Notes: a model not told the origin generated them from the letters alone. DNA of 64,000 nt from Candidatus Nanopelagicales bacterium (GCA_030834185.1 JAURFT010000003.1:1848-65847), one strand, 5' to 3'; positions 34,916-48,233 are shown, numbered from the stretch's first letter. Program-made: numbers and translations.

Positions 34916-36040
34916 ATGCGTGTCTTAGTTGTCCCAGATTCCTTCACTGGCACCCTTTCCGCCTCCGAAGCCGCAGCTGCCATCACTTCTGGCTGGCGGG
35001 ATGCCGCACCTCACGATGAGCTCATTTCACTGGCGATGTCAGATGGTGGCCCGGGGTTTGTGGCAGCGATGCTAACAAGCGAAAATTATCAAAGCGAAAC
35101 ATTCCAAGTGACTGATTTGCAAGGTCAACTTGTATCAATAGATGTTGCCATTAGTTCTACTAATCCCAAAACTGTTTTTATTGAATCAGCTCAAATTGTT
35201 GGAACGCAGCTTGTTGCATCTAACCCAGTTCGAAGTCCTGGAAGTTACTCCAGTTTTGGAATTGGGGAAGCAATTCTTTGGGCAATTGCAAATCATGCTC
35301 AACGAATTGTGATTGGGCTTGGTGGCACTGCGTTAATAGATGGTGGCGCTGGAATGCTGGCTGCATTAGGTGCGCAACCAAAATCAAAGTTGATGCAAGG
35401 CGGTTTAGCATTAGCGCAGGTCACTGAAATTAATTTGTCGGCTCCTATCGCTAATTTGGCTGGAGTTGAATTAGTTGTAGCTGCAGATGTAGATGTACCG
35501 CTGCTTGGATCACGCGGAGCTGCACTTGGTTTTGGTCTGCAAAAGGGCGCAACCGCTGTACAGCAAGCTGAGCTTGAAGCAGCATTAACTAATTACAGTT
35601 CAATGATGCCAAAACGAATCGATGGCAAAGATGCAGCTTTGATGCTGGGAGCAGGAGCTGCAGGTGGGATTGGCTATGCGGCGTTAGCGTTAGGCGGAAC
35701 TAAGGTTCCAGGTTTTAATTACGTCGCAGCAGCAGTTGAGCTGCTTGAGCAGGTGGCAGTTGCTGATTTGGTCATAACTGGTGAAGGCAGTTTTGATTGG
35801 CAGAGCATGCAAGGAAAAGCAGTCTCACAGCTGGCAGCAATCTGCGCAGCTGCAGGCAAGCCGCTGCTGGTGCTAGCAGGTCGCGTTGATGTTGGCAGGA
35901 GAGAGTGGTCTGCAATTGGAGTAGTTGGAGCCTATGGGTGCTCTGCTGATGGCGAGTTGCCCGATCAGCCGTATGAGGCGCTAGTTAGCCTTGCCAATAG
36001 AGTTGCCAGAACATTTTCACCGGTTTCATGGCAGACTTAG
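34916..36040 (+). CDS. Glycerate kinase
   Basis: Starts MRVLVVPDSFTGTLSA (the canonical motif reads DSFKG) and has a C-terminal ITGEGSFDWQSMQGK block. Confidence 0.85.
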   Translation: MRVLVVPDSFTGTLSASEAAAAITSGWRDAAPHDELISLAMSDGGPGFVAAMLTSENYQSETFQVTDLQGQLVSIDVAISSTNPKTVFIESAQIVGTQLVASNPVRSPGSYSSFGIGEAILWAIANHAQRIVIGLGGTALIDGGAGMLAALGAQPKSKLMQGGLALAQVTEINLSAPIANLAGVELVVAADVDVPLLGSRGAALGFGLQKGATAVQQAELEAALTNYSSMMPKRIDGKDAALMLGAGAAGGIGYAALALGGTKVPGFNYVAAAVELLEQVAVADLVITGEGSFDWQSMQGKAVSQLAAICAAAGKPLLVLAGRVDVGRREWSAIGVVGAYGCSADGELPDQPYEALVSLANRVARTFSPVSWQT

Positions 36041-36061
36041 CCCCTGACGCAAGGAGAGATT

Positions 36062-36406
36062 ATGACTGTTGAAGCAAACACCACATCTGTACAGCTAACT
36101 GATGCTGCAGCTGTGAAGGTAAAAACATTGCTGGACCAAGAAGGTCGAGATGATTTGAACCTACGCGTAGCAGTTCAGCCTGGCGGCTGCAGCGGACTTA
36201 AGTATCAATTATTTTTTGATGATCGCGCTATGGATGGTGATGTCATTAATGACTTCAGCGGCGTAAAAGTTGTTGTAGACAAGATGAGCGTTCCATACCT
36301 ATCAGGTGCAGTAGTTGATTTCGTTGACTCCATTGAAAAGCAGGGATTTACGATCGATAATCCAAATGCTGGTGGATCATGCGCCTGTGGTGACTCTTTC
36401 CACTAA
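36062..36406 (+). CDS. HesB/IscA/ErpA-family iron-sulfur cluster insertion protein
   Basis: 114 aa with cysteines in GGCSG and a C-terminal CACGDSF motif. Confidence 0.9.
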   Translation: MTVEANTTSVQLTDAAAVKVKTLLDQEGRDDLNLRVAVQPGGCSGLKYQLFFDDRAMDGDVINDFSGVKVVVDKMSVPYLSGAVVDFVDSIEKQGFTIDNPNAGGSCACGDSFH

Positions 36407-36429
36407 CCACAAATTAATCTACTTTAACT

Positions 36430-37401
36430 ATGCGCATTATTGTTGCGGGCTCTATTGCCACGGATCACTTAATGCGTTTTCCAGGAAAATTCACTGACTC
36501 CTTAGTTGCCGATCAATTGTCTAATGTGTCGTTGTCATTTTTAGTCGATGATCTTGTAGTGCATCGAGGTGGATCAGGGGCCAACATTGCGTTTGGTTTG
36601 GGAAGCCTTGGCCTTAACCCAATTTTGATCGGTGCGGTTGGTTTGGATTTTCAAGATTACAGATCCTGGTTAGAGCGACATGGCGTTGATTGTGAAAGCA
36701 TTCATGTCAGCGAGGTTGCGCAGACGGCAAGATTTGTCTGCACAACAGATGAAGCGCAGAACCAAATTGCTTCTTTTTATGCCGGCGCAATGAGTGAAGC
36801 GCGAAATGTAGAGCTAAGCCCAACTGTTAGTCGCATAACTGAAGCTCCGCTGATCATAATTGGTCCAGATGATCCAGAGGCAATGCTTCGACATACAGAT
36901 GAATGTCGGCAACGTGGCTACGAATTTGCAGCTGACCCAAGTCAGCAACTTGCTCGAATGGATGGCGATCAAATTCGATTGTTAATCGATGGTGCTAAAT
37001 ACTTGTTTACAAATGAATATGAAGCAGCGCTTACTGAACAAAAAACAGGCTGGTCTGCAACTGAGATTTTGCAACGGGTTGAATTTCGAATTACAACGCT
37101 GGGTGCAAAAGGCGCTCGCATTGAAGCTGCTAGCGGAGCTGTAACTGAAGTGGGCTGCCCCAAGGAGCGAACCTTGGCCGATCCAACTGGGGTTGGCGAT
37201 GGGTTCCGAGCTGGCTTCCTAGCTGGGGTAGCAAAGGGCCTAAACCACGAGCGAGCAGCCCAAATTGGTGCGACATTGGCCACATTAGTTATCGAGAACG
37301 TTGGCCCACAGGAGTATCGCTTTGAGGAAAATGACTTTATTTCAAGGATTTTGGCCACTTATGGCGAACTGGCCGCTGAGGAGATTTCCGCAGTCTTATG
37401 A
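36430..37401 (+). CDS. PfkB-family carbohydrate/adenosine kinase
   Basis: GGSGANIA and DPTGVGDGFRAGF (PfkB signature 2). Position equivalent to adoK (Rv2202c). Confidence 0.8.
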   Translation: MRIIVAGSIATDHLMRFPGKFTDSLVADQLSNVSLSFLVDDLVVHRGGSGANIAFGLGSLGLNPILIGAVGLDFQDYRSWLERHGVDCESIHVSEVAQTARFVCTTDEAQNQIASFYAGAMSEARNVELSPTVSRITEAPLIIIGPDDPEAMLRHTDECRQRGYEFAADPSQQLARMDGDQIRLLIDGAKYLFTNEYEAALTEQKTGWSATEILQRVEFRITTLGAKGARIEAASGAVTEVGCPKERTLADPTGVGDGFRAGFLAGVAKGLNHERAAQIGATLATLVIENVGPQEYRFEENDFISRILATYGELAAEEISAVL

Positions 37402-37454
37402 GGGAACTGCGCTAGCCTTAGCTCGAATCCAACTTAACTAGGAGGACTGTCCCT

Positions 37455-38276
37455 GTGGCTGGCCAGCATTCAACGATGAGGCGAGTAGTTACGTTACTTG
37501 CACTGCTTCCACTTCTTGCTTCCTGCGGCATGGTTGCTGACAACGAGTTCACTCGACTTGGGTTTCCTGAACCAGCAACTGAAGAAGGCCCGGGGATTAT
37601 CACGCTTTGGCAAGGCTTTTGGATAGTTGCGATTGCGGTTGGTCTGTTAGTTATTGGATTGCTAGTTTTTGCGTCTATTAAGTATCGACGTAGATCTGAT
37701 GATGAAGTTCCAGATCAAGTTAGATATAACATTCCAATTGAAATTTTGTACACAGTAGTGCCACTTATTATTGTGCTGGCGCTTTTCGGATTTACCGCAA
37801 AAGAACAAAATAAATTAACAGCGCTATCAGATGAATACACACACGTAGTAAACGTAGTTGGATTCCGTTGGTCGTGGGCTTTTAATTACATTGATAATGA
37901 TGTTTACGAGACAGGCACACCTGGTGTGGTACCAACTTTATATTTGCCAGTTGATGAAAAAGTAAGATTTGAATTAACCTCGCCGGATGTTTTGCACTCT
38001 TTTTGGATTCCATCTTTCTTGTTTAAAATGGATATCGTGCCTGGAGCAATCAACAGATTTGAGCTAACGCCTGATCGAGTTGGAACTTTTGTTGGTAAAT
38101 GTGCCGAGCTATGTGGTCAAGACCACGCTCGAATGTTGTTTAATGTCAAAGTTGTTGATCGTGCTGAATATGACCAATATATTGCAAGCTTAGAAACCAA
38201 AGGCCAAACCGGAATGATTCCACCTGGCATCTTGCCACGAAATGAATCAATTACAAATGCAGGAGCAAGTCGATGA
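37455..38276 (+). CDS. ctaC: Cytochrome c oxidase subunit II
   Basis: GTG start behind AGGAGG, lipobox LLASCG and the CuA site HSFWIP...[12 protein letters not shown]. Confidence 0.95.
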
Positions 38277-39964
38277 CCACATTAGATGATCGTCCATTAA
38301 CTGAATCAGCGACACCAAGGCCCCGTAGGTACACCAAGGGTCAGGCATTTGTTAAGTGGATTACCAGCACCGATCACAAGACTATTGGGTACATGTATCT
38401 AATTACTTCATTTGCATTTTTTGGAATTGCCGGACTTATGGCGCTTGTCATTCGAGCTGAGCTAGCTCAGCCAGGATTGCAGTTTGTTTCCAATGAGCAG
38501 TACAACCAGTTATTTACAATGCATGGAACCATCATGTTGTTCTTGTTTGCAACTCCACTTTTTGTTGGTTTTGGTAATGTGATTATGCCGTTGCAAATCG
38601 GTGCACCTGATGTGGCATTTCCAAGGCTTAACATGCTTGGATTTTGGCTGTTTTTATTTGGTGGATTAATAGTCTTAATGGGATTTTTCACTCCAGGTGG
38701 AGCTGCAGCTTTTGGTTGGTTTGCCTACACGCCGCTATCTACCGCAGCATATAGCCCAGGCGTTGGTGGCGATTTATGGATTATGGGACTGACTCTTAGC
38801 GGGCTAGCTACCATTTTAGGATCGGTAAACTTCATCACCACGCTGCTAACCATGCGCGCTCCTGGTATGACGATGTTTAGAACCTCGATTTTTACCTGGA
38901 CAATTTTTATTACCTCAGTATTGGTATTAATCGCATTCCCAATTCTTGCCGCAGCTTTAATGGGTTTATTTTTGGATAGAAACTTTGGCACCTTGATCTT
39001 TGATCCAGCCCACGGCGGTGCCATTTTGTGGCAGCATCTATTTTGGTTCTTTGGGCATCCTGAGGTTTATATTATTGCGCTGCCATTTTTTGGAATTGCC
39101 TCAGAGATCTTGCCAGTGTTTTCTCGTAAGCCAGTTTTTGGTTATAAAGGCTTGGTTTATGCAACAATGGCAATTGCTGCGCTTTCAGTTGCAGTGTGGG
39201 CGCACCATATGTATGTAACGGGTGCAGTTTCATTATCATTTTTCGCGCTCACAACTATGTTAATTGCGGTTCCAACTGGAGTTAAATTCTTTAACTGGAT
39301 TGGCACCATGTGGCGCGGCTCTATTTCGTTTGAAACTCCGATGCTTTGGACGCTTGGATTTTTGACCACATTCTTATTTGGTGGCCTAACTGGCGTAATG
39401 CTGGCAGCGCCGGCAATTGATTTCCATGTTTCGGATTCCTATTTTGTGGTGGCGCATTTCCACTACACCGTATTTGGCACGGTAGTGTTTATGATGTTTG
39501 CAGGTTTTTATTTCTGGTGGCCAAAAATGACTGGTCGCATGCTGGATGAAAAGCTAGGCAAGCTGCATTTCTGGCTATTATTTATTGGTTTCCACACGAC
39601 GTTTTTAGTGCAGCATTGGTTAGGTGCAGAAGGCATGCCGCGCCGCTACAGCGACTATTTAGCAAGTGATGGCTTCACAACATTAAACGTGATCTCTTCG
39701 GTGGGTGCAGCTATTTTGGGCCTATCGACGCTGCCTTGGCTGTATAACGTTTATCGAACTTGGCGATTTGCACCAAAGGTAACAACTGATGATCCTTGGG
39801 GTTGGGGAATGTCGCTGGAGTGGGCAACAAGCTGTCCGCCACCTCGATACAACTTTGTACAGATTCCTCGAATTCGAAGCGAACGTCCGGCTTTTGATCT
39901 TCATCATCCAGAATATGGAGATGATCCAAATACGAATCCGAACTTAGCTGGAAAGAGTCACTGA
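38273..39964 (+). CDS. ctaD: Cytochrome c oxidase subunit I
   Basis: 563 aa. Heme-copper oxidase motifs WFFGHPEVY and HHMY, and 12 TM helices. Confidence 0.97.
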
Positions 39965-40365
39965 TGAAATCTGGTGGCATGCTTTATATGGCAGGAGCAC
40001 TTTTTTACTTCGCAGTTTCTGCAATTTATTTTGTTTGGACCGGTGAAGTTGTTGGCACAACTGGACTGTTGCTAACTGGCTTTCTAGCGCTGCTAACCGG
40101 CTTTTATGTGCTCTTTACAGTTCGTCGATTAGGTGAAGGTCCAGAAGATCTTGAAGATGCTGAGATCGCAGATGCTGATCCAGACTATGGTTTTTATTCA
40201 CCAAGCTCCTGGTGGCCGCTACCGGTGGCATTTAGCGCAGCGGTGATCTCAGTTGGGCTGATTTTTGCAGTCTGGCTAGTGCTGCTTGGTGTAATTACTT
40301 TGTTTATTAGCTTGGGCGGTTGGATGCTTGAGTACTACCGAGGCCCTAGGTTGCCTGAAGCTTAA
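39964..40365 (+). CDS. ctaF: Cytochrome c oxidase subunit IV (actinobacterial CtaF)
   Basis: 133 aa with 4 TM helices. Directly follows ctaD with a TGATG overlap. Confidence 0.8.
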   Translation: MKSGGMLYMAGALFYFAVSAIYFVWTGEVVGTTGLLLTGFLALLTGFYVLFTVRRLGEGPEDLEDAEIADADPDYGFYSPSSWWPLPVAFSAAVISVGLIFAVWLVLLGVITLFISLGGWMLEYYRGPRLPEA

Positions 40366-40993
40366 TAGTTGTAACCGCATTAGCAGAGATTTGTTGTGCC
40401 AGCCTGGCATTTAAGCTGGCAGCAGCTGCAGCGCCGATAAATAATGGCAAAGCTGCGCCAGCTTTTGCCGGCAGCAATTTACTTCCCACCTTAATAATTA
40501 CTCGCTGGGATAGTTTGTTGTTCAAATTCGCAAGAAAGTTATCCGCTACATCAGTTGTTTTGCTCAACTCATTTGGTTCGCCAAGAAATGAACTAAGCAC
40601 AGTAAGGCGTCTGAGTTCAATATCGTCTAACTGCAGGTCATGTAAGGCGGCAATTAATAAAATGTGATTAACGCTCACTTTGCCAAAAAAATATAGATCA
40701 GCGGCAGTGCTTCCTATAGTGCTTAAAAAACCAAAAAAGGGTGCAGCAGCTATCGCACCAGATGCTGCACCAGCTGCGCTAACTTGAATCAGGTAATTAT
40801 TTGTGGCGTTCTTAATAAGTTGGTCTTGGGTGAAGTTTGGATTTTCGCTGCGCAAGCGTGCTGCAGCTGCCCAGGACTTTGCATATTGATCAGCTATAGC
40901 AGCATCTCCACCTCGAAGGAAAACACTGCCTAGCTGTTTGACTGCATCAGATTTTGAGTTCACCTCAGAAGGGTAGATCATCACCTGTATCAA
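40346..40993 (-). CDS. Hypothetical protein, possibly EcsC-like; third gene of the nuclease operon
   Basis: 215 aa with two Gly/Ala-rich hydrophobic stretches (AAGAASGAIAAAPFFGFLSTIGSTAADLYFFG; AGAALPLFIGAAAAAS). The block IAALHDLQLDDIELRR recalls EcsC-family proteins. The start (TTG 40993 or ATG 40981) overlaps the end of the upstream gene. The 3' end overlaps ctaF by 20 nt. Confidence 0.4.
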   Translation of the reverse strand: MIQVMIYPSEVNSKSDAVKQLGSVFLRGGDAAIADQYAKSWAAAARLRSENPNFTQDQLIKNATNNYLIQVSAAGAASGAIAAAPFFGFLSTIGSTAADLYFFGKVSVNHILLIAALHDLQLDDIELRRLTVLSSFLGEPNELSKTTDVADNFLANLNNKLSQRVIIKVGSKLLPAKAGAALPLFIGAAAAASLNARLAQQISANAVTTIKLQAT

Positions 40994-42722
40994 CCGCTTC
41001 CACCAAGGCTAGGGCTCGGACTAACGCATCTATGGCAACAGGCTGCGTAGTTATGACCTCACCGGTAACCAGATCTACCTCAAGGCCGTCAGCTAGTTTC
41101 TCTGTAGTAGTTTGCGGATTAGTTACCCGCTGATCGCACCAAGCGCTAACCGGGCAGCTCAAGCAAGCTGTTCCCGGATTGGGTGCAAAGCTCTCATCAT
41201 GATGTAGCTGATCGAAATTTATGGCAATTGAACGGCGAGCAGCAAGCACGATGCTTGCATCTGCAACATCAAATGAAATTAGCTTTCCTGATTCAGGGGT
41301 TAATAGCTCCAATTCGACAAATCCGCCGACCTCTTCTTGTATGCAAATTGCAAATGCAACCTGCGGATACAACAATAAATATTCATTAGCCGTTAGTTCT
41401 TGAATAACGGCTGTAGTTTTTAATTCACGCCAAATTGGCACACCAGCTCGAGTGCCAAGCTCATCAGCTCGAGTTGTGATTACCACATCAGCATCGCTAT
41501 CCCAAACCGTCTTAGATTGCTCGCTTTCTAGTTTGGTATAACTGTGTTGATATGGGCAGAGCGCAAAATGACTAGTTATCCAGTTGCGAGCTTGATCTAG
41601 ATAGGTTATTGGCCAACCCAGACTTTCTGCTATTTCACCCAGCTGTCCAGCTGGCAGGTCAGCGGCGGTGCAGGCTTGTTCGCGTTGGTGCGCTTTCATG
41701 ATCCATTCATGAACCGCGTTACCTCGATCGATGGCCGCATTTGATTCGAAAGCTTTTTTAGGAAGTTTCAAGACATATGTTAAGAAATACTGATAGTTAC
41801 ACCTTTGATACGAACTTAGCATCGAGCGCGAGAGGGATTTAGAGATTTTACCTGCGGTTGGAAGTCCTAGGAATCCTGGAATTTTTACAATTGCAGGGCA
41901 ACTAATTCGAAACCGACACTCAACGCAGTTATTGCCTGGCTGAAATTCAGGAGCCAACAAAAAATCTTGAACAATGGTTGAAACTCCGCCAACAAATGCC
42001 GCCGCAGATGACGCATCCCCATCAAAAAGCGTGGCAGCTGAACTATCCAAGCAACCAATTTGGCGCACTCTAACTCTGAGCGGGGGATTAGTTGGCAGCG
42101 TCTGGTGTGGGTCGGTCCAGCGGGCAATCGGCCCATCGGTGATGGCCCCATTTAATAAAATATTTACAGCCGCTATCAATTGGTTTCTATCTCGAGTAGT
42201 TTGGGCATCTCGATAGCAGAATAATCTAAGTTCTCTAATGGTTTTATCTACGCTTTGATAAAAAACACCCCAGTTGGTGAGCTCTAATCGCTGATTATCA
42301 GTAGTTGCGACACAAACAAAATCTGCAGTTGGCTGCATCACTTGGTCAACAGCTAAATCTTCAGCAGCAAAATCTTCAGTGGCATTTAGGGCATTTTGCA
42401 CCATTGTTTTTGCAGCTAATAAACTCGGTTCAGTCGCATCAGTACCAAGCTCTGCCGCAATTACTTCAGCTAGATTCGTCGGTGTTCGCTGTGCTGCTAA
42501 CACAGTGCGCGCTGCACCTAATAAAAATACTGCTCGGGGATCTTTGCGCTGGGACCAATCGCGGGCCTCGGTGTAAAGTCCAACATAGGCTTTAGCAACT
42601 TTTTCGACAGCGCAGCTTCCAGTTACATTTTTAAGGGCAGATGAACTAACTCGGATTAATGATGCCGATCCATTAGTTTTCCATGGTGGTTGCCACAGTT
42701 GTAGATCAGCTAGATTAATCAT
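40965..42722 (-). CDS. Tandem two-module PD-(D/E)XK (Cas4/AddB-type, 4-Cys) nuclease-like protein with an SSB-tail-like C-terminus
   Basis: Module 2: C308, GNAVH338, D420, E433-L-K435, C520-x2-C523-x5-C529. Module 1: C37 and C266-x2-C269-x5-C275, but D134...E147-L-T149 (no Lys). Ends ...DTGDDLPF. Confidence 0.6.
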   Translation of the reverse strand: MINLADLQLWQPPWKTNGSASLIRVSSSALKNVTGSCAVEKVAKAYVGLYTEARDWSQRKDPRAVFLLGAARTVLAAQRTPTNLAEVIAAELGTDATEPSLLAAKTMVQNALNATEDFAAEDLAVDQVMQPTADFVCVATTDNQRLELTNWGVFYQSVDKTIRELRLFCYRDAQTTRDRNQLIAAVNILLNGAITDGPIARWTDPHQTLPTNPPLRVRVRQIGCLDSSAATLFDGDASSAAAFVGGVSTIVQDFLLAPEFQPGNNCVECRFRISCPAIVKIPGFLGLPTAGKISKSLSRSMLSSYQRCNYQYFLTYVLKLPKKAFESNAAIDRGNAVHEWIMKAHQREQACTAADLPAGQLGEIAESLGWPITYLDQARNWITSHFALCPYQHSYTKLESEQSKTVWDSDADVVITTRADELGTRAGVPIWRELKTTAVIQELTANEYLLLYPQVAFAICIQEEVGGFVELELLTPESGKLISFDVADASIVLAARRSIAINFDQLHHDESFAPNPGTACLSCPVSAWCDQRVTNPQTTTEKLADGLEVDLVTGEVITTQPVAIDALVRALALVEAVDTGDDLPF

Positions 42723-43663
42723 TATTCACTCAATTCAAGCGGGAGTAAATCTAGCGGGTTTGGTTCAGCTGCTACGGCGGAAATTTTGCGCTGCAAACCA
42801 GTTTGGCTTAACAGCTGCTGCGATGCGGCTGAACCAGGTGGTGGTGAAGTTTTTTGGTGGGCGGGGCATACTGGTTTAAACGGGCAGTAACTGCACAGCC
42901 GAGATGGTTGCGCTAGCCATTTGGCGGTTTTAAATGACTCATCAATCTGAGAGCGAGTTTCCACAAGCACCTCAGTTACCCGCTCTATTGCCGCTGGATA
43001 CACAGGTCTGCGGACAGCTTGTTTATCCGGAAGAAAAAGCAGCTCAACTTCTTCAACGCCTGGATCTGAACCATCATTTATCGCTGCTGCATAAAACATT
43101 ACCTGCTGCACATAATCATCCAGCGGAGCTCCCGTGGGCTTTTTCCCAGTCTTGTAGTCGGTAACTCGGTCAACTGGTTTTCTAGTTCTACGATCTAACC
43201 TGCCATGAAATAAAACGCCAGCAAGCTGGGCATCTACATCAGATTCGATATCTTTTAAATCAACCTCAATCTCAGTTGGTTTCTCAAGCTCAAAATATCC
43301 CGTGAGTGCTAAATCAGCTCGTTTGCGAACATCGTCACGATTTGCACCACGGCCTAGATGTTCATACTCAGGCTTCAGTAACAAATCTTTACCAATGGTG
43401 CCCATGATCGCCCAAGCGTTCTCAAAGCTTCGATCAGGCTGTGGTAATCGATACAAGCCTTCTAAAGTGTCATGCACAATTGTTCCAGCCGCTAAAGCTG
43501 GGGTTGGTGGTTCGCGCCAACCCAGTAAATATGAAAACCAATATCGCAGCGCACATTTCCGAAAGGCTGAAATCTGGGTTGGCGATAATCTGATACTGGG
43601 ATTGCCAGCATCAGTTAAATCAACATCTACTTCAATAGATTGAAATCCGTTCCTTGCGCTCAT
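42722..43663 (-). CDS. Cas4/AddB-type PD-(D/E)XK nuclease with a 4-Cys (Fe-S) signature
   Basis: C37, G60-x3-H64, GRLD157, D169-Y-K171, Q187-x3-Y191 and C257-x2-C260-x5-C266. TAATG overlap with the downstream gene. Confidence 0.75.
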   Translation of the reverse strand: MSARNGFQSIEVDVDLTDAGNPSIRLSPTQISAFRKCALRYWFSYLLGWREPPTPALAAGTIVHDTLEGLYRLPQPDRSFENAWAIMGTIGKDLLLKPEYEHLGRGANRDDVRKRADLALTGYFELEKPTEIEVDLKDIESDVDAQLAGVLFHGRLDRRTRKPVDRVTDYKTGKKPTGAPLDDYVQQVMFYAAAINDGSDPGVEEVELLFLPDKQAVRRPVYPAAIERVTEVLVETRSQIDESFKTAKWLAQPSRLCSYCPFKPVCPAHQKTSPPPGSAASQQLLSQTGLQRKISAVAAEPNPLDLLPLELSE

Positions 43664-43747: not shown

Positions 43748-44134
43748 TTAGGAATTTGCGCCGCTTAAGGTAAGGGCAAGCTGATCCCAGCGGGCCATTT
43801 CACAGCCATCAGTTCGAGTAAATTTGCGTTTGATCGGCGCACCAGCCCAGCGCCCAGTAACAATTGCCGTTTGTTCGCCGCCGTAAATTTTGGTGCAGAT
43901 CTCAGATTTTGGTGGCTTCTTAAATGGCAGCACTGCCGCTTTAAGTTCAGTGCATGCCAGTTTCGCCGCTGGATGGTTGCCAGCAGCAGGTCGACATTGC
44001 AATCTCCAATGCACAGCTTTTGCATCTGCAGCTGATTTATAGCTAATTTTTAGCTGGTAGTTCTGATTTGCAAAACTAGGGGAGAAGCTCAAATTAAAAC
44101 AACAAACTAAAACAACAATAACTAATTTTCGCAT
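43748..44134 (-). CDS. Secreted subtilisin-inhibitor-like (SSI-domain) protein
   Basis: A signal peptide followed by the SSI pattern LQCRPAAGNHPAAKLAC...CTKIYGGEQTAIVTGRWAGAPIKRKFTRTDGCEMARW, with two Cys pairs. Confidence 0.7.
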   Translation of the reverse strand: MRKLVIVVLVCCFNLSFSPSFANQNYQLKISYKSAADAKAVHWRLQCRPAAGNHPAAKLACTELKAAVLPFKKPPKSEICTKIYGGEQTAIVTGRWAGAPIKRKFTRTDGCEMARWDQLALTLSGANS

Positions 44135-45498: not shown

Positions 45499-47202
45499 TT
45501 AATGACTTTTTGTTGGCTCTGGTAAATCATGGGTAATCTCAAGCCCCAACGCCTGCGCCTCTTGCAGCTCGTGCACCGCATGGTGCTTGGCGGCCTCAAG
45601 TTCAGCGATGGTTGGCATTGGGATTTGATCAACATACCACCAGCGATTCAAGCGGTGCTGCAGCTTCTTAGCCCAAAGCTTTGGCGTTTTAACGCCGCTT
45701 TGATCAACTTCAGCTGGAGGTTGCAACATTGGCAGCTCAGTGCGCGCCAGCAACACAGCTTTAACATTGTCGCTTAGCGGTTCGTGGACCTCAATGAACT
45801 CACCACTTGGCAAGCGAAGCAATCTACCAGTTGGATCACCATGCAGTAAGCGTTCTTTGTCGCTGTGCTGCAAGGACAAACAGATGCGCTTAGTAATCAC
45901 AAAAGCTAGCGGCGGAGCTACAAAAATCGCTACTCGAATAAGTCTAGTCATATCGTTAATTGATAAATCCAACATCTGCGCGATGATGTCATTTCCGCCA
46001 GCAATCCAAAGCAGGCCATAAAACGTTAACGACATCACGCCAATTCCGGTTCGATTTGGATTATTGCGTGGTCGCTCCAAGATGTGGTGCGCGCGGTTGT
46101 CGCCAGTAATCCACTGCTCAATCCATGGATACAGCGCCAGCAGCGTAAACATGATGCCAGGCACCACAACTGCAGGAATCAAAATATTTAAACTCAACGT
46201 GCCAATGCCAGCGATCACAATTTCCCAGTTTGGCATGATGCGAGTGCCACCATCAAGCCATCCGATATACCAGTCAGGTTGCGAGCCAGCAGTAACTTGA
46301 TCAGGCATATAAGGGCCATATGCCCAAAGTGGGTTAATAGTTACTAATCCTGCTAGCAGCACTAAAAATCCAAATACAATAAAGAAGAAGCCACCAGCTT
46401 TTGCCATATAAGCTGGCATTAGCGGATACCCAACCACGTTGTTATTGGTGCGACCTGGGCCTGGATACTGAGTGTGCTTTTGGAACCAGACCAACATTAA
46501 ATGTGCGGTTATTAGAGCTAACATAATTCCTGGAATTATCAGCACGTGAAGCGTGTAAAGCCGCGACATGAAATCAAGTCCAGGAAATTCGCCACCAAAA
46601 ACTAAGAATGACACATAAGTGCCAATGACCGGAATTGCCAACGCGATGCCAGAGGCGATTCGAATGCCAGTTCCGCTAAGTAGATCATCTGGCAATGAGT
46701 AGCCAGAAAAACCTTCAAAAATTGCCAGCACTAGCAGGCCAACGCCAATCACCCAATTTAACTCGCGAGGTTTGCGAAACGCACCAGTGAAGAAAACTCG
46801 GAGCAGGTGAACTGTGATTGCAGCTACAAACAGCAGCGCACCCCAGTGGTGAACCTGACGCATCAATAGCCCGCCTCGAACATCAAATGAGATTTCCAGC
46901 GTTGAGGCATATGCCTCACTCATTTTGATTCCTTTAAGCGGTAGATATGAGCCATCGTAAACAATTTCAATTAGGGATGGCTTATAAAAAAATGTTAAAT
47001 AAACACCAGAAAGCAACAAAATTATAAATGAGTAAAGTGCAATCTCGCCGAGCATAAAGGACCAATGGTCAGGGAACACCTTCTTGATGTTGCGCTTGAT
47101 GAAGCCAGATGTGCCATAGCGTTCGTCTAGATACTTAATGCCGCCATCGATTGATTTATCAACAGGTCCGCGGGTGATCTCAGTGCTCATTAACGCTCCC
47201 AA
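45499..47202 (-). CDS. qcrB: Cytochrome bc1 complex cytochrome b subunit
   Basis: 567 aa. Heme-ligand histidine contexts (RQVHHWGALLF, LYTLHVLIIP) and the actinobacterial C-terminal extension. Confidence 0.95.
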   Translation of the reverse strand: MGALMSTEITRGPVDKSIDGGIKYLDERYGTSGFIKRNIKKVFPDHWSFMLGEIALYSFIILLLSGVYLTFFYKPSLIEIVYDGSYLPLKGIKMSEAYASTLEISFDVRGGLLMRQVHHWGALLFVAAITVHLLRVFFTGAFRKPRELNWVIGVGLLVLAIFEGFSGYSLPDDLLSGTGIRIASGIALAIPVIGTYVSFLVFGGEFPGLDFMSRLYTLHVLIIPGIMLALITAHLMLVWFQKHTQYPGPGRTNNNVVGYPLMPAYMAKAGGFFFIVFGFLVLLAGLVTINPLWAYGPYMPDQVTAGSQPDWYIGWLDGGTRIMPNWEIVIAGIGTLSLNILIPAVVVPGIMFTLLALYPWIEQWITGDNRAHHILERPRNNPNRTGIGVMSLTFYGLLWIAGGNDIIAQMLDLSINDMTRLIRVAIFVAPPLAFVITKRICLSLQHSDKERLLHGDPTGRLLRLPSGEFIEVHEPLSDNVKAVLLARTELPMLQPPAEVDQSGVKTPKLWAKKLQHRLNRWWYVDQIPMPTIAELEAAKHHAVHELQEAQALGLEITHDLPEPTKSH

Positions 47203-48233
47203 AAACTAGGGCCAATTGGCTCTTGAAAATCTGATAACGCAACTAAATAACCTTCTTCATCCACGCCTAGCGGTAGCTGTGGTAGTCGGCGAGCTGCCGG
47301 GCCAAAAACCACATTTCCCGAATCTGCCAAGTCAAAGGTGGACTGATGACATGGACATAGCAAATGATGGGTGCGATGTTCATAAAGCGCAATCGGACAA
47401 CCCACATGGGTGCAGATTTTGGAGTAGGCGATGATGCCTTGATAGTCCCAACCTTCACCTTGCGAGGTACGCAGTTGCTCTGGGGTCATGCGAACAACCA
47501 AGATTGAGGTTTTAGCTCGGGCATTTAGGTTGTGATTCTCCTCTTCCCAGGCATGCAGGTTCTCTGGATGGGCAGAAACTAAGGATCCAACTGAAAAATC
47601 TTCTGGACGTAGATATCGACCAGTTGGGTCAGTTACTAATCGCATGCCTTTAGTCCATAAAGTTTCACGCAGCTCATTTTTTGGCATTGGTCCAAAATCC
47701 AGCGCCAAAATAACCGCTGGAAGTGGCAACACTGCAAGTGCGGTGAGTAATGAACGACGAACAATTTTGCGAGTTGCAAATCCTGATTCAATTCCACCTT
47801 CGCGAATCTCTTGCATTACAGATTCACGAATTTGATTGCTAGATGCGTAGGAGTGGCGAGACTGAATTACTTCATCATCTGGCATCAGTTTACGCGCCCA
47901 ATGAATAGCACCAGTTCCGATCAGGAAAATTGCCAAACCTAAAGTCACACCCAAGGCCAAGTTTGATGCCTGTGTTACTCCAGCTCCTGGAACTCTGATG
48001 AATTTATCAACTGGAATTGCAAAAAAAGTAATTGTTGCTAACACCGTGAACACAGCTGAGAGTAAAAACATAATTGAAACTTGACGCTCTGCTCTGCCAG
48101 CAGCAATTGGATCCACATCTGCACGTCGCAGAACGTGCAGCGGCAGTTGGCTGTTTGGTAAACGAACCTCTGAACTTGTTTGCGTTACCGGTACTACCTG
48201 ATTATCAGTTTCATTATGCTCGTTGCTGCTCAC
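47190..48233 (-). CDS. qcrA: Cytochrome bc1 complex Rieske iron-sulfur subunit
   Basis: Rieske motifs CTHVGC and CPCHQS, with N-terminal TM helices. Confidence 0.95.
   Translation of the reverse strand: MSSNEHNETDNQVVPVTQTSSEVRLPNSQLPLHVLRRADVDPIAAGRAERQVSIMFLLSAVFTVLATITFFAIPVDKFIRVPGAGVTQASNLALGVTLGLAIFLIGTGAIHWARKLMPDDEVIQSRHSYASSNQIRESVMQEIREGGIESGFATRKIVRRSLLTALAVLPLPAVILALDFGPMPKNELRETLWTKGMRLVTDPTGRYLRPEDFSVGSLVSAHPENLHAWEEENHNLNARAKTSILVVRMTPEQLRTSQGEGWDYQGIIAYSKICTHVGCPIALYEHRTHHLLCPCHQSTFDLADSGNVVFGPAARRLPQLPLGVDEEGYLVALSDFQEPIGPSFWER

Follow-up and report, generated by a model that had tools for sequence, protein, structure and literature searches.

Degenerate helicase and nuclease folds are kept for DNA handling in AddB and RecC, and the dead nuclease fold of RecC carries no iron-sulphur (Fe-S) cluster. 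An active nuclease fold and an inactive copy with a structural or substrate-binding role are held in one chain by Sau3AI and by the tandem-repeat archaeal tRNA-splicing endonucleases. Here we analyse ORF B, a predicted two-module nuclease of 585 amino acids, and its overlapping neighbour ORF A, a single-module nuclease of 313 amino acids. Both are encoded in a 64,000-nucleotide stretch of DNA (the window) from Candidatus Nanopelagicales bacterium (GCA_030834185.1 JAURFT010000003.1:1848-65847). We consider it reasonably likely that ORF B is a pseudo-dimeric Cas4/AdnA-type nuclease, with two RecB-like PD-(D/E)XK modules in a single chain and a predicted Fe-S "iron staple" in each of them.

Among the described systems, ACE1 is the best structural match of both the N-terminal half (N-half) and the whole of ORF B. 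ACE1 is a Cas4-family endonuclease of single-stranded DNA (ssDNA) that forms a heterodimer with a long-A pAgo and trims the DNA guides of this pAgo (PMC12094033). ACE1 and ACE2 are single-module proteins of 278-313 amino acids with an intact D-DxK site, and they accompany long-A pAgos of cyanobacteria and Bacillota (PMC12094033). A second point of reference is the pPIWI-RE system, whose original description comprised a three-gene triad only, with the restriction endonuclease (REase) gene in first position (Burroughs et al. 2013; PMC3702460).

The iron-staple Cas4 fold is common to ORF B and ACE1, but ORF B carries a second, degenerate module, and the sequence identity is only 12-14%. ACE1 and ACE2 are accessory nucleases co-encoded with an Argonaute-type protein, a connection that ORF B has only through its relatives in pPIWI-RE operons. 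With two modules, and with no pAgo in the window, ORF B falls outside the ACE1/ACE2 definition, and the likeness is structural only. The CRISPR Cas4 proteins (SSO0001, Pcal_0546; TIGR00372) have the same fold and the same four-cysteine staple as ORF B. TIGR00372 itself gave no match to ORF B and 34.1 bits, against a cutoff of 65, to ORF A. No cas gene was called within ~10 kb on either side in two syntenic loci (L006 and L007); no search for cas genes or CRISPR arrays was made in the window itself. Unlike RecC, ORF B keeps the cluster ligands in its dead fold. PDDEXK_1 was the sole Pfam family found in ORF A and ORF B at the curated cutoff, no helicase domain was found in the cassette, and an NCBIfam AddB score of 16.7, against a cutoff of 903.7, places ORF B outside the AddB/RecC type. 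Sau3AI and the tRNA-splicing endonucleases belong to other families and lack Fe-S clusters, and their likeness to ORF B is conceptual only.

A two-staple cysteine pattern is conserved throughout the ORF B family

ORF B is encoded on the minus strand, and the plus-strand frame of the same interval is packed with stops; the first-pass annotation of this DNA had named no strand. All of the residues that it had singled out are nevertheless found in the minus-strand protein under the same numbers: C37, C266/C269/C275, C308 and C520/C523/C529, and also D134, E147-L-T149, H338 (in GNAVH), D420 and E433-L-K435. Its wording that each module starts with a lone cysteine was loose. C37 and C308 are present, but ORF B holds 14 cysteines; C137, C169 and C224 are not conserved.

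The homologues found first were a close set with 60-95% identity and 584-585 amino acids, and one distant protein, P0012, with 30% identity. When P0012 was used as the query, a large actinobacterial family of 520-600 amino acids was recovered, annotated as "PD-(D/E)XK nuclease family protein" and present in Streptomyces, Kitasatospora, Nocardia, Amycolatopsis, Saccharopolyspora, Kribbella, Actinomadura and other genera. We measured conservation in an automatic alignment of 218 full-length family representatives, from which the percentages given here and below are taken, and in a curated alignment of 42 sequences with members down to 24% identity. Among the 218 representatives, C266, C269, C275 and C308 are 100% conserved, C520, C523 and C529 99%, and C37 95%. 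In the curated alignment there is no variation at any of the eight staple cysteines, nor at H338, D420, E433 or K435. Because the cysteines are conserved to this degree in both alignments, the two-staple pattern is, as judged from sequence, not due to chance. The staple reads CVECRFRISC in the N-terminal module (N-module) and CLSCPVSAWC in the C-terminal module (C-module). The complete C-Xn-CxxCx5C signature that had been noted for the N-half is therefore kept at 95-100%, and each module is probably pinned by its own predicted [4Fe-4S] cluster. The positions of these and the other features are collected in Table 1.

Table 1. Positions of the features of ORF B, ORF A and the adjoining genes in the window.
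Feature	Position	Strand	Basis or remark
ORF B, 585 amino acids, predicted two-module Cas4/RecB-like protein, PADLOC PprPDDEXK family member	40965..42722	-	ATG-to-stop ORF; profile E 6.8e-49; AlphaFold2 model
N-module (residues 16-281), predicted catalytically degenerate Cas4/RecB-like fold	41880..42677	-	AlphaFold2; Foldseek; no Pfam match; no conserved Lys
C37, first Cys of the predicted N-module staple	42612..42614	-	invariant in 42 sequences; opposite C308 in hhalign
E147-L-T149, triplet earlier taken as the dead ExK	42276..42284	-	in the earlier strand 145-149
R163-E164-L-R166, probable N-module counterpart of the catalytic R-E-x-K strand, Arg for Lys	42225..42236	-	hhalign; strand directly before helix 179-191
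C266-x2-C269-x5-C275, predicted N-module staple	41898..41927	-	100% in 218; aligned with C520/523/529
Inter-module linker PGFLGLP (residues 282-288)	41859..41879	-	conserved: P282 82%, G283 91%, L285 97%, G286 89%
C-module (residues 293-532), predicted canonical Cas4/AdnA-type PD-(D/E)XK nuclease	41127..41846	-	PDDEXK_1; AdnA alignment; Foldseek
C308, first Cys of the predicted C-module staple	41799..41801	-	100% conserved
H338, motif GxAVH	41709..41711	-	90% H, otherwise D
Helical insertion with H345, C351, H385 and C389, putative extra (Zn?) site	41556..41690	-	99-100% conserved in 218
D420, motif II Asp	41463..41465	-	98% conserved
E433-L-K435, motif III	41418..41426	-	E 98%, K 96% conserved
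C520-x2-C523-x5-C529, predicted C-module staple	41136..41165	-	99% conserved
C-terminal tail (residues 533-585)	40968..41126	-	pLDDT 27-65; conserved in close homologues
DDLPF C-terminus, resembles the SSB C-terminal tip	40968..40982	-	sequence comparison
ORF A, 313 amino acids, canonical single-module Cas4/RecB-family nuclease	42722..43663	-	PDDEXK_1 E 4.8e-30
Downstream ORF, ~211 amino acids, probable ATG at 40981, overlaps ORF B by 17 nucleotides	40346..40981	-	syntenic in all Nanopelagicales loci
Small secreted-looking protein with a subtilisin-inhibitor-like (SSI) domain	43748-44134	-	E 8e-11; immediately upstream of ORF A

The N-terminal half is predicted to adopt a second Cas4/RecB-like fold

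Pfam covers just half of ORF B, and database records call the family merely a PD-(D/E)XK protein. PDDEXK_1 (PF12705) matches residues 296-530 only (E 5.8e-17; 62.9 bits against a cutoff of 22), with the profile matched from end to end (1-247 of 247), and NCBIfam returned nothing beyond sub-threshold AddB fragments. For residues 1-292, Pfam gave no match, phmmer against PDB sequences was empty and NCBIfam gave nothing significant. A search of PDB sequences with an N-half profile found nothing relevant, and PDDEXK_1 missed the N-half in 29 of the 31 members searched, the remaining two reaching only E 0.056.

Structure prediction gave a confident AlphaFold2 model of residues 1-292 from a 31-sequence alignment (mean pLDDT 87.9, pTM 0.87). 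With this model, a Foldseek search of the PDB returned ACE1 (9IAB/9IAC) and the nuclease domain of AdnA (6PPR, 9NP6, 6PPU, 7SJR) as the leading matches, followed by Cas4 SSO0001 (4ic1), Exo5, MGME1, Dna2, AddAB and RecE, all of which are RecB-family nucleases. The best E-value was 4.4e-6, and the probability was 1.0 for eight Cas4/AdnA/ACE1 chains. The full-length model of ORF B (pLDDT 86.5, pTM 0.82) had the same leading targets. On the evidence of these models the N-half is a second Cas4/RecB-like fold, as the first-pass annotation had proposed.

The two modules also share the order of their elements: a strand, an SxSxL-like motif, the first cysteine, helices (one of them long) and a beta-meander, followed by a helix, two strands, a helix and PGxxCxxCx5C. 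The first cysteine is found in the context IRVSSSALKNVTGSC37 in the N-module and KSLSRSMLSSYQRC308 in the C-module, and C37 follows the SxSxL-like strand (IRVSSSAL) and directly precedes helix 38-45. The lack of any Pfam or PDB sequence match might suggest an unrelated Fe-S or regulatory domain in the N-half, one that only mimics the Cas4 cysteine spacing. The Foldseek matches, led by the eight Cas4/AdnA/ACE1 chains with RecB-family nucleases next, and the start motif and secondary-structure order shared with the C-module make this scarcely credible.

The homology of the two halves rests on fold and not on sequence, because reciprocal hidden Markov model (HMM) searches of the N-half against the C-half recovered mainly PGxxCxxCx5C. 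When the N-half profile was run exhaustively against 1.84 billion representatives, only 275 proteins reached E<=1e-3. Of these, 150 were listed, almost all of them members of the same two-module family or fragments of such members, matched at the N-terminus, and there was no bridge to canonical Cas4 families. The N-module thus appears to be a hallmark of this one family, since its profile finds almost nothing else. A search of BFVD for a viral two-module counterpart gave only single-module RecB/Cas4 exonucleases, with at most ~360 aligned columns. A Cas4 fold that lacks the lysine and retains the cluster predicts ~8 Fe per chain, and would offer a clean test of the iron staple without catalysis.

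The C-terminal module has the residues of an active nuclease

In the full-length model, the C-module matched ACE1, RecE, AdnA and Cas4 by Foldseek. Alignment of the family profile with the nuclease domain of M. smegmatis AdnA places E433 opposite D934 and K435 opposite K936, and C520/C523/C529 align with C-ANC-PVRSSC of AdnA, its CxxCx5C. D934 is the residue changed in the nuclease-dead D934A structures, the sequence rows of which show Ala at this position. Q454, in a QxxxY-type helix, is 92% conserved. With its full H...D...ExK...Q set, the C-module is likely to be the module that cuts ssDNA.

Residues 345-389 of this module contain a candidate His2Cys2 site (H345/C351/H385/C389) that is separate from the four-cysteine staple and lies outside the PDDEXK_1 description. 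These four residues, of which C351 and C389 are invariant, may form an extra metal site.

The N-terminal module has probably lost its active site, with arginine in place of the catalytic lysine

In the first-pass annotation, D134...E147-L-T149 had been taken as the decayed equivalent of the catalytic Asp and ExK. This register was not supported. D134 is not conserved, its column being a gap in 186 of the 218 representatives, and E147-L-T149 falls one beta-hairpin (two strands) upstream of the strand that leads into the QxxxY-type helix. E147 is 85% conserved; position 149 is Y, T, C, F, A or W, and K in only 5 of 218. An hhalign comparison of the two halves was weak (E 1.2e-3, probability 19%) and in register across the last 90-110 residues; in its extended form it pairs C37 with C308, R163-E164-L-R166 with R432-E433-L-K435, Q181 with Q454, and the two CxxCx5C motifs with each other. 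In both modules the R-E-x-[RK] strand (residues 162-169 in the N-module, 428-436 in the C-module) stands immediately before the helix that bears the glutamine. From the profile alignment and the order of strands and helices, the earlier register is probably wrong, and R163-E164-L-R166 is the strand that faces R432-E433-L-K435. In the revised register the substitution would be K to R, with W or H in some members, and not K to T. R163 and E164 are 95% conserved, and R166 is 82% conserved, otherwise being W in 15 and H in 14 of the 218 (W in the homologue of locus L019). D159 was also considered as the motif II Asp and was set aside, as it sits in a tight turn between strands 153-157 and 162-169.

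A catalytic lysine elsewhere in the N-module was looked for in the 218 members, and no conserved lysine was found anywhere; nor is there a conserved histidine in its long helix, where position 110 is variable. The N-module would have retained the Glu and exchanged Lys for Arg; of motifs I and II, neither the His nor the Asp would remain. The C-half keeps its complete set. The central idea of the earlier annotation, a second Cas4-like fold that is degenerate and has kept its cysteines, is borne out by AlphaFold2, Foldseek and the conservation, as is the lack of a conserved catalytic Lys or His in this module.

Could the N-module itself be active? A non-canonical nuclease or metal-dependent enzyme using E147, D159, E164 and R166 would give ORF B two working sites, and the conservation of these residues and of R163 (D159 is at 84%) exceeds what would be expected of a purely structural strand. 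Some relatives have His at position 166, and PD-(D/E)XK enzymes with a substituted lysine exist, for example BamHI. We regard this alternative as unlikely, given that 29 of the 218 members have W or H at position 166, that no histidine is conserved in the long helix, that D159 lies in a DG-type beta-turn and that the N-half escaped PDDEXK_1 in nearly all of the members searched.

Returning to the two-module reading with a degenerate N-module, several points weigh against it. In comparison with solved structures, the N-half reaches TM-scores of only 0.40-0.49. The low-probability HMM-HMM alignment and the secondary-structure order are the basis of the N-module register, and the same alignment puts E147 opposite D420, which is at odds with a simple hairpin geometry. 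The positions proposed for E147, E164 and R166 in space come from alignment and strand order, and metal binding or residual activity would still be compatible with the conserved acidic residues E147, D159 and E164. Finally, a complex of ORF A with ORF B, which we consider below, is suggested solely by gene overlap and recurrence.

The two modules may stem from duplication or from fusion

The first-pass annotation had described ORF B as a tandem duplication. There are indeed two Cas4-like modules in tandem, but duplication is only one of two possible origins. In hhalign, the distance of the N profile is about the same to the C-half (E 1.2e-3) as to the ORF A family (E 1.7e-3); the C-half and the ORF A family match at E 2.5e-10. 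Because the N profile is equidistant from the two, the fusion of two Cas4-like genes is equally possible on this comparison.

In such a scenario, fusion would have joined two Cas4-like genes that had already diverged, such as one resembling ORF A and one encoding a catalytic partner, and the N-module would have decayed afterwards. The adjacent, overlapping Cas4-like gene pairs seen in the ORF A-ORF B system provide an evident route to it. However, fast divergence of a released pseudo-enzyme copy would wipe out the signal equally, and the halves have in common the surroundings of PGxxCxxCx5C and a terminal region of ~90-110 residues over which they can be aligned. No fusion intermediate was found among the matches of the N-half profile, where genes with only the N-half were mostly fragments on short contigs and were not examined. 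We regard a fusion origin as plausible, although we lean slightly against it.

ORF B belongs to a family normally encoded in pPIWI-RE operons

ORF B matches the PADLOC-DB v2 model PDLC02423 (PprPDDEXK) over residues 143-534 (profile positions 68-443 of 449; E 6.8e-49), and its Streptomyces and Nocardia relatives match the same model at E 1e-84 to 1e-104. By this profile evidence ORF B is a member of the PprPDDEXK family, which is normally encoded by the first gene of a pPIWI-RE operon. The PprPDDEXK relatives have the same two-module length and the same conserved residues as ORF B. We found the operon in Streptomyces (L001), Nocardia terpenica (L002), a soil metagenome contig (L003), Spirillospora (L004/L005) and Nocardiopsis (L015), and counted Ppr operons in 5 genera. 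The operon consists of four co-oriented, closely spaced genes in the order two-module PDDEXK, pPIWI_RE_Y + REase, pPIWI_RE_Z/DinG-type helicase and pPIWI-RE, named PprPDDEXK, PprRE, PprDinG and PprPIWI in PADLOC-DB; the pPIWI-RE product has X, MID and RNase H-like PIWI domains. In these actinobacterial loci (positions 10001-19112 in L001) the operons have four genes and not three, with the two-module PDDEXK gene in the lead. An N6_Mtase gene of ~710 amino acids lies divergently just upstream of the operon in L001 and L003, and a type I restriction-modification (R-M) system adjoins it in L001.

Literature searches for PprPDDEXK/pPIWI and for PIWI-RE found no description of the PDDEXK component or of its architecture. 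Both the fold families and the gene family have been described before; what appears to be undescribed is the two-module architecture with two staples, along with the cassette of ORF A and ORF B with its SSB-like tail. The architecture proposed here would define an uncharacterised fourth component of pPIWI-RE systems, which is timely given that ACE1 binds and serves a pAgo.

The partner genes of these operons were not detected around ORF B. In a tblastn search of the whole window with the three Streptomyces Ppr partner proteins, nothing was found below E 2.6, and the partners were also absent from the recovered flanks of the syntenic Nanopelagicales loci; the rest of the genome was not covered. 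The earlier statement that ORF B has no motor is correct for the window, but most of its relatives are encoded beside a DinG-type helicase in pPIWI-RE operons.

ORF A and ORF B form a conserved cassette

Unlike its relatives in Ppr operons, ORF B belongs to a tail-bearing subclade that is paired with a single-module Cas4-like gene, here ORF A. The stop codon of ORF A and the start codon of ORF B overlap by one base (TAATG), and because of this overlap the two genes are probably translationally coupled. The active site of ORF A is intact: H64, D157, D169-Y-K171, Q187...Y191 and C37/C257/C260/C266 are conserved in 24-26 of 26 relatives. After the third staple cysteine of ORF A, residues 267-290 form a conserved extension (P274-x-P276-G277...S281...L285...G289-L290). 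It recalls the PGxLG linker that follows the N staple of ORF B and may be a docking element.

Pairs of a single-module and a two-module gene with a 4-nucleotide overlap recur on the unrelated contigs L018 (truncated), L019, L020 and L021. In a rough neighbour-joining tree, the proteins with this context all group in a single clade of 29 representatives, which contains none of the known Ppr members. The close relatives of ORF B come from Candidatus Nanopelagicales and from unclassified Actinomycetota metagenome-assembled genomes from lakes. In Nanopelagicales, the SSI-like gene, ORF A, ORF B and ORF215 are located between the qcrCAB and ctaCDF operons; the ORF A-ORF B-ORF215 core was present at every locus with recovered flanks, and the SSI-like gene at all of these but L012. 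This location among core respiratory operons is unusual and stable for a family otherwise found in defence islands.

The absence of the three Ppr partner genes from the window, and the usual setting of the family in defence islands, beside type I R-M or ubiquitin-like systems, might suggest that the cassette is a decaying, now functionless remnant of a pPIWI-RE defence island. This is very unlikely. Wherever flanks were recovered in Nanopelagicales, the cassette keeps its place between the qcr and cta operons; ORF B is full length there and 60-95% identical, with all of its catalytic and cysteine residues intact, and the A-B subfamily is a separate clade of ~29 representatives. Moreover, Nanopelagicales genomes are streamlined. 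A maintained cassette in the core genome points to a function in DNA-end processing or defence that has no need of an Argonaute.

The C-terminal tail of ORF B resembles that of SSB

The tail of ORF B comprises a conserved motif, DGxxVDxxTGE[IV], an amphipathic helix and a terminal DDLPF, so that the protein ends ...DTGDDLPF. An acidic-x(0-2)-PF ending was found in 49 of the 218 representatives, among them the exact endings ...ADDEPPF and ...DDDIPF, and 97% of the A-B clade carries an acidic-PF ending. The SSB tips of M. smegmatis and E. coli read GADDEPPF and DFDDDIPF, respectively (PMC3575820; PMC5872125). The low pLDDT of the tail is as expected for a flexible docking peptide, and we infer that the tail may work as a mimic of the SSB C-terminus. 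In many members the acidic-PF ending is preceded by the conserved DGxxVDxxTGE[IV] hairpin motif.

A tentative model for the two-module nuclease

We hypothesize that the N-module would serve as a non-catalytic scaffold stapled by its cluster, in which a pocket of the conserved residues R24, R163, E164, R166 and R218 would grip a strand or an end of DNA, or serve as the docking site of a partner. The role proposed for it parallels that of the dead nuclease fold of RecC, or the contact that ACE1 makes with its Argonaute. Jointly, ORF A and ORF B would make up a nuclease that lacks a motor and has three clusters; its active nuclease sites would number two, as in AddAB and AdnAB. The SSB-like tail could bring this nuclease to the ssDNA-processing machinery of SSB clients or to a host helicase. 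In Ppr operons, the two-module protein would work alongside DinG and pPIWI-RE, perhaps producing guides or trimming them in the manner of ACE1.

By analogy, ORF A and ORF B might together be a minimal motor-less counterpart of AddAB/AdnAB, built from three Cas4-like modules, with two active sites and as many [4Fe-4S] clusters as modules. Strand splitting or end recognition would fall to the dead N-module, the DDLPF/DDEPPF/DDDIPF tip would enter the pockets that receive SSB tails and thereby borrow a host helicase or SSB-coated ssDNA, and pPIWI-RE would have recruited the two-module nuclease, with DinG, as an enzyme that generates guides or degrades targets. Taken as a whole, this model is speculative, and we consider it rather doubtful. 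The cassette with its SSB-tail-like tip is a distinct, predicted two-gene nuclease unit fixed in the core genome of the abundant freshwater Nanopelagicales.

Genes surrounding the cassette

The flanks of the cassette in the window (34916-40365 on the plus strand and 45499-48233 on the minus strand) hold erpA-like, PfkB kinase and ctaC-ctaD-ctaF genes on one side and qcrB and qcrA on the other. The ~211-amino-acid downstream ORF had no Pfam, NCBIfam or PADLOC match and is absent from the A-B pairs of other lineages; among Nanopelagicales loci it is 57-63% identical, with Ala/Gly-rich hydrophobic stretches. On the opposite side of the cassette, the SSI-like gene overlaps the stop of an MFS/ATG22-type transporter gene.

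Outside Nanopelagicales, the pair at L019 (305-7655) encodes proteins of 341 and 614 amino acids, the latter ending DDDPPPF, beside a ubiquitin-type cluster (ThiF/Prok-JAB/Y4jH-like/YukD-like). These neighbours suggest a defence-island setting for the cassette in other lineages, and the pair at L020 lies near a GmrSD_C gene.

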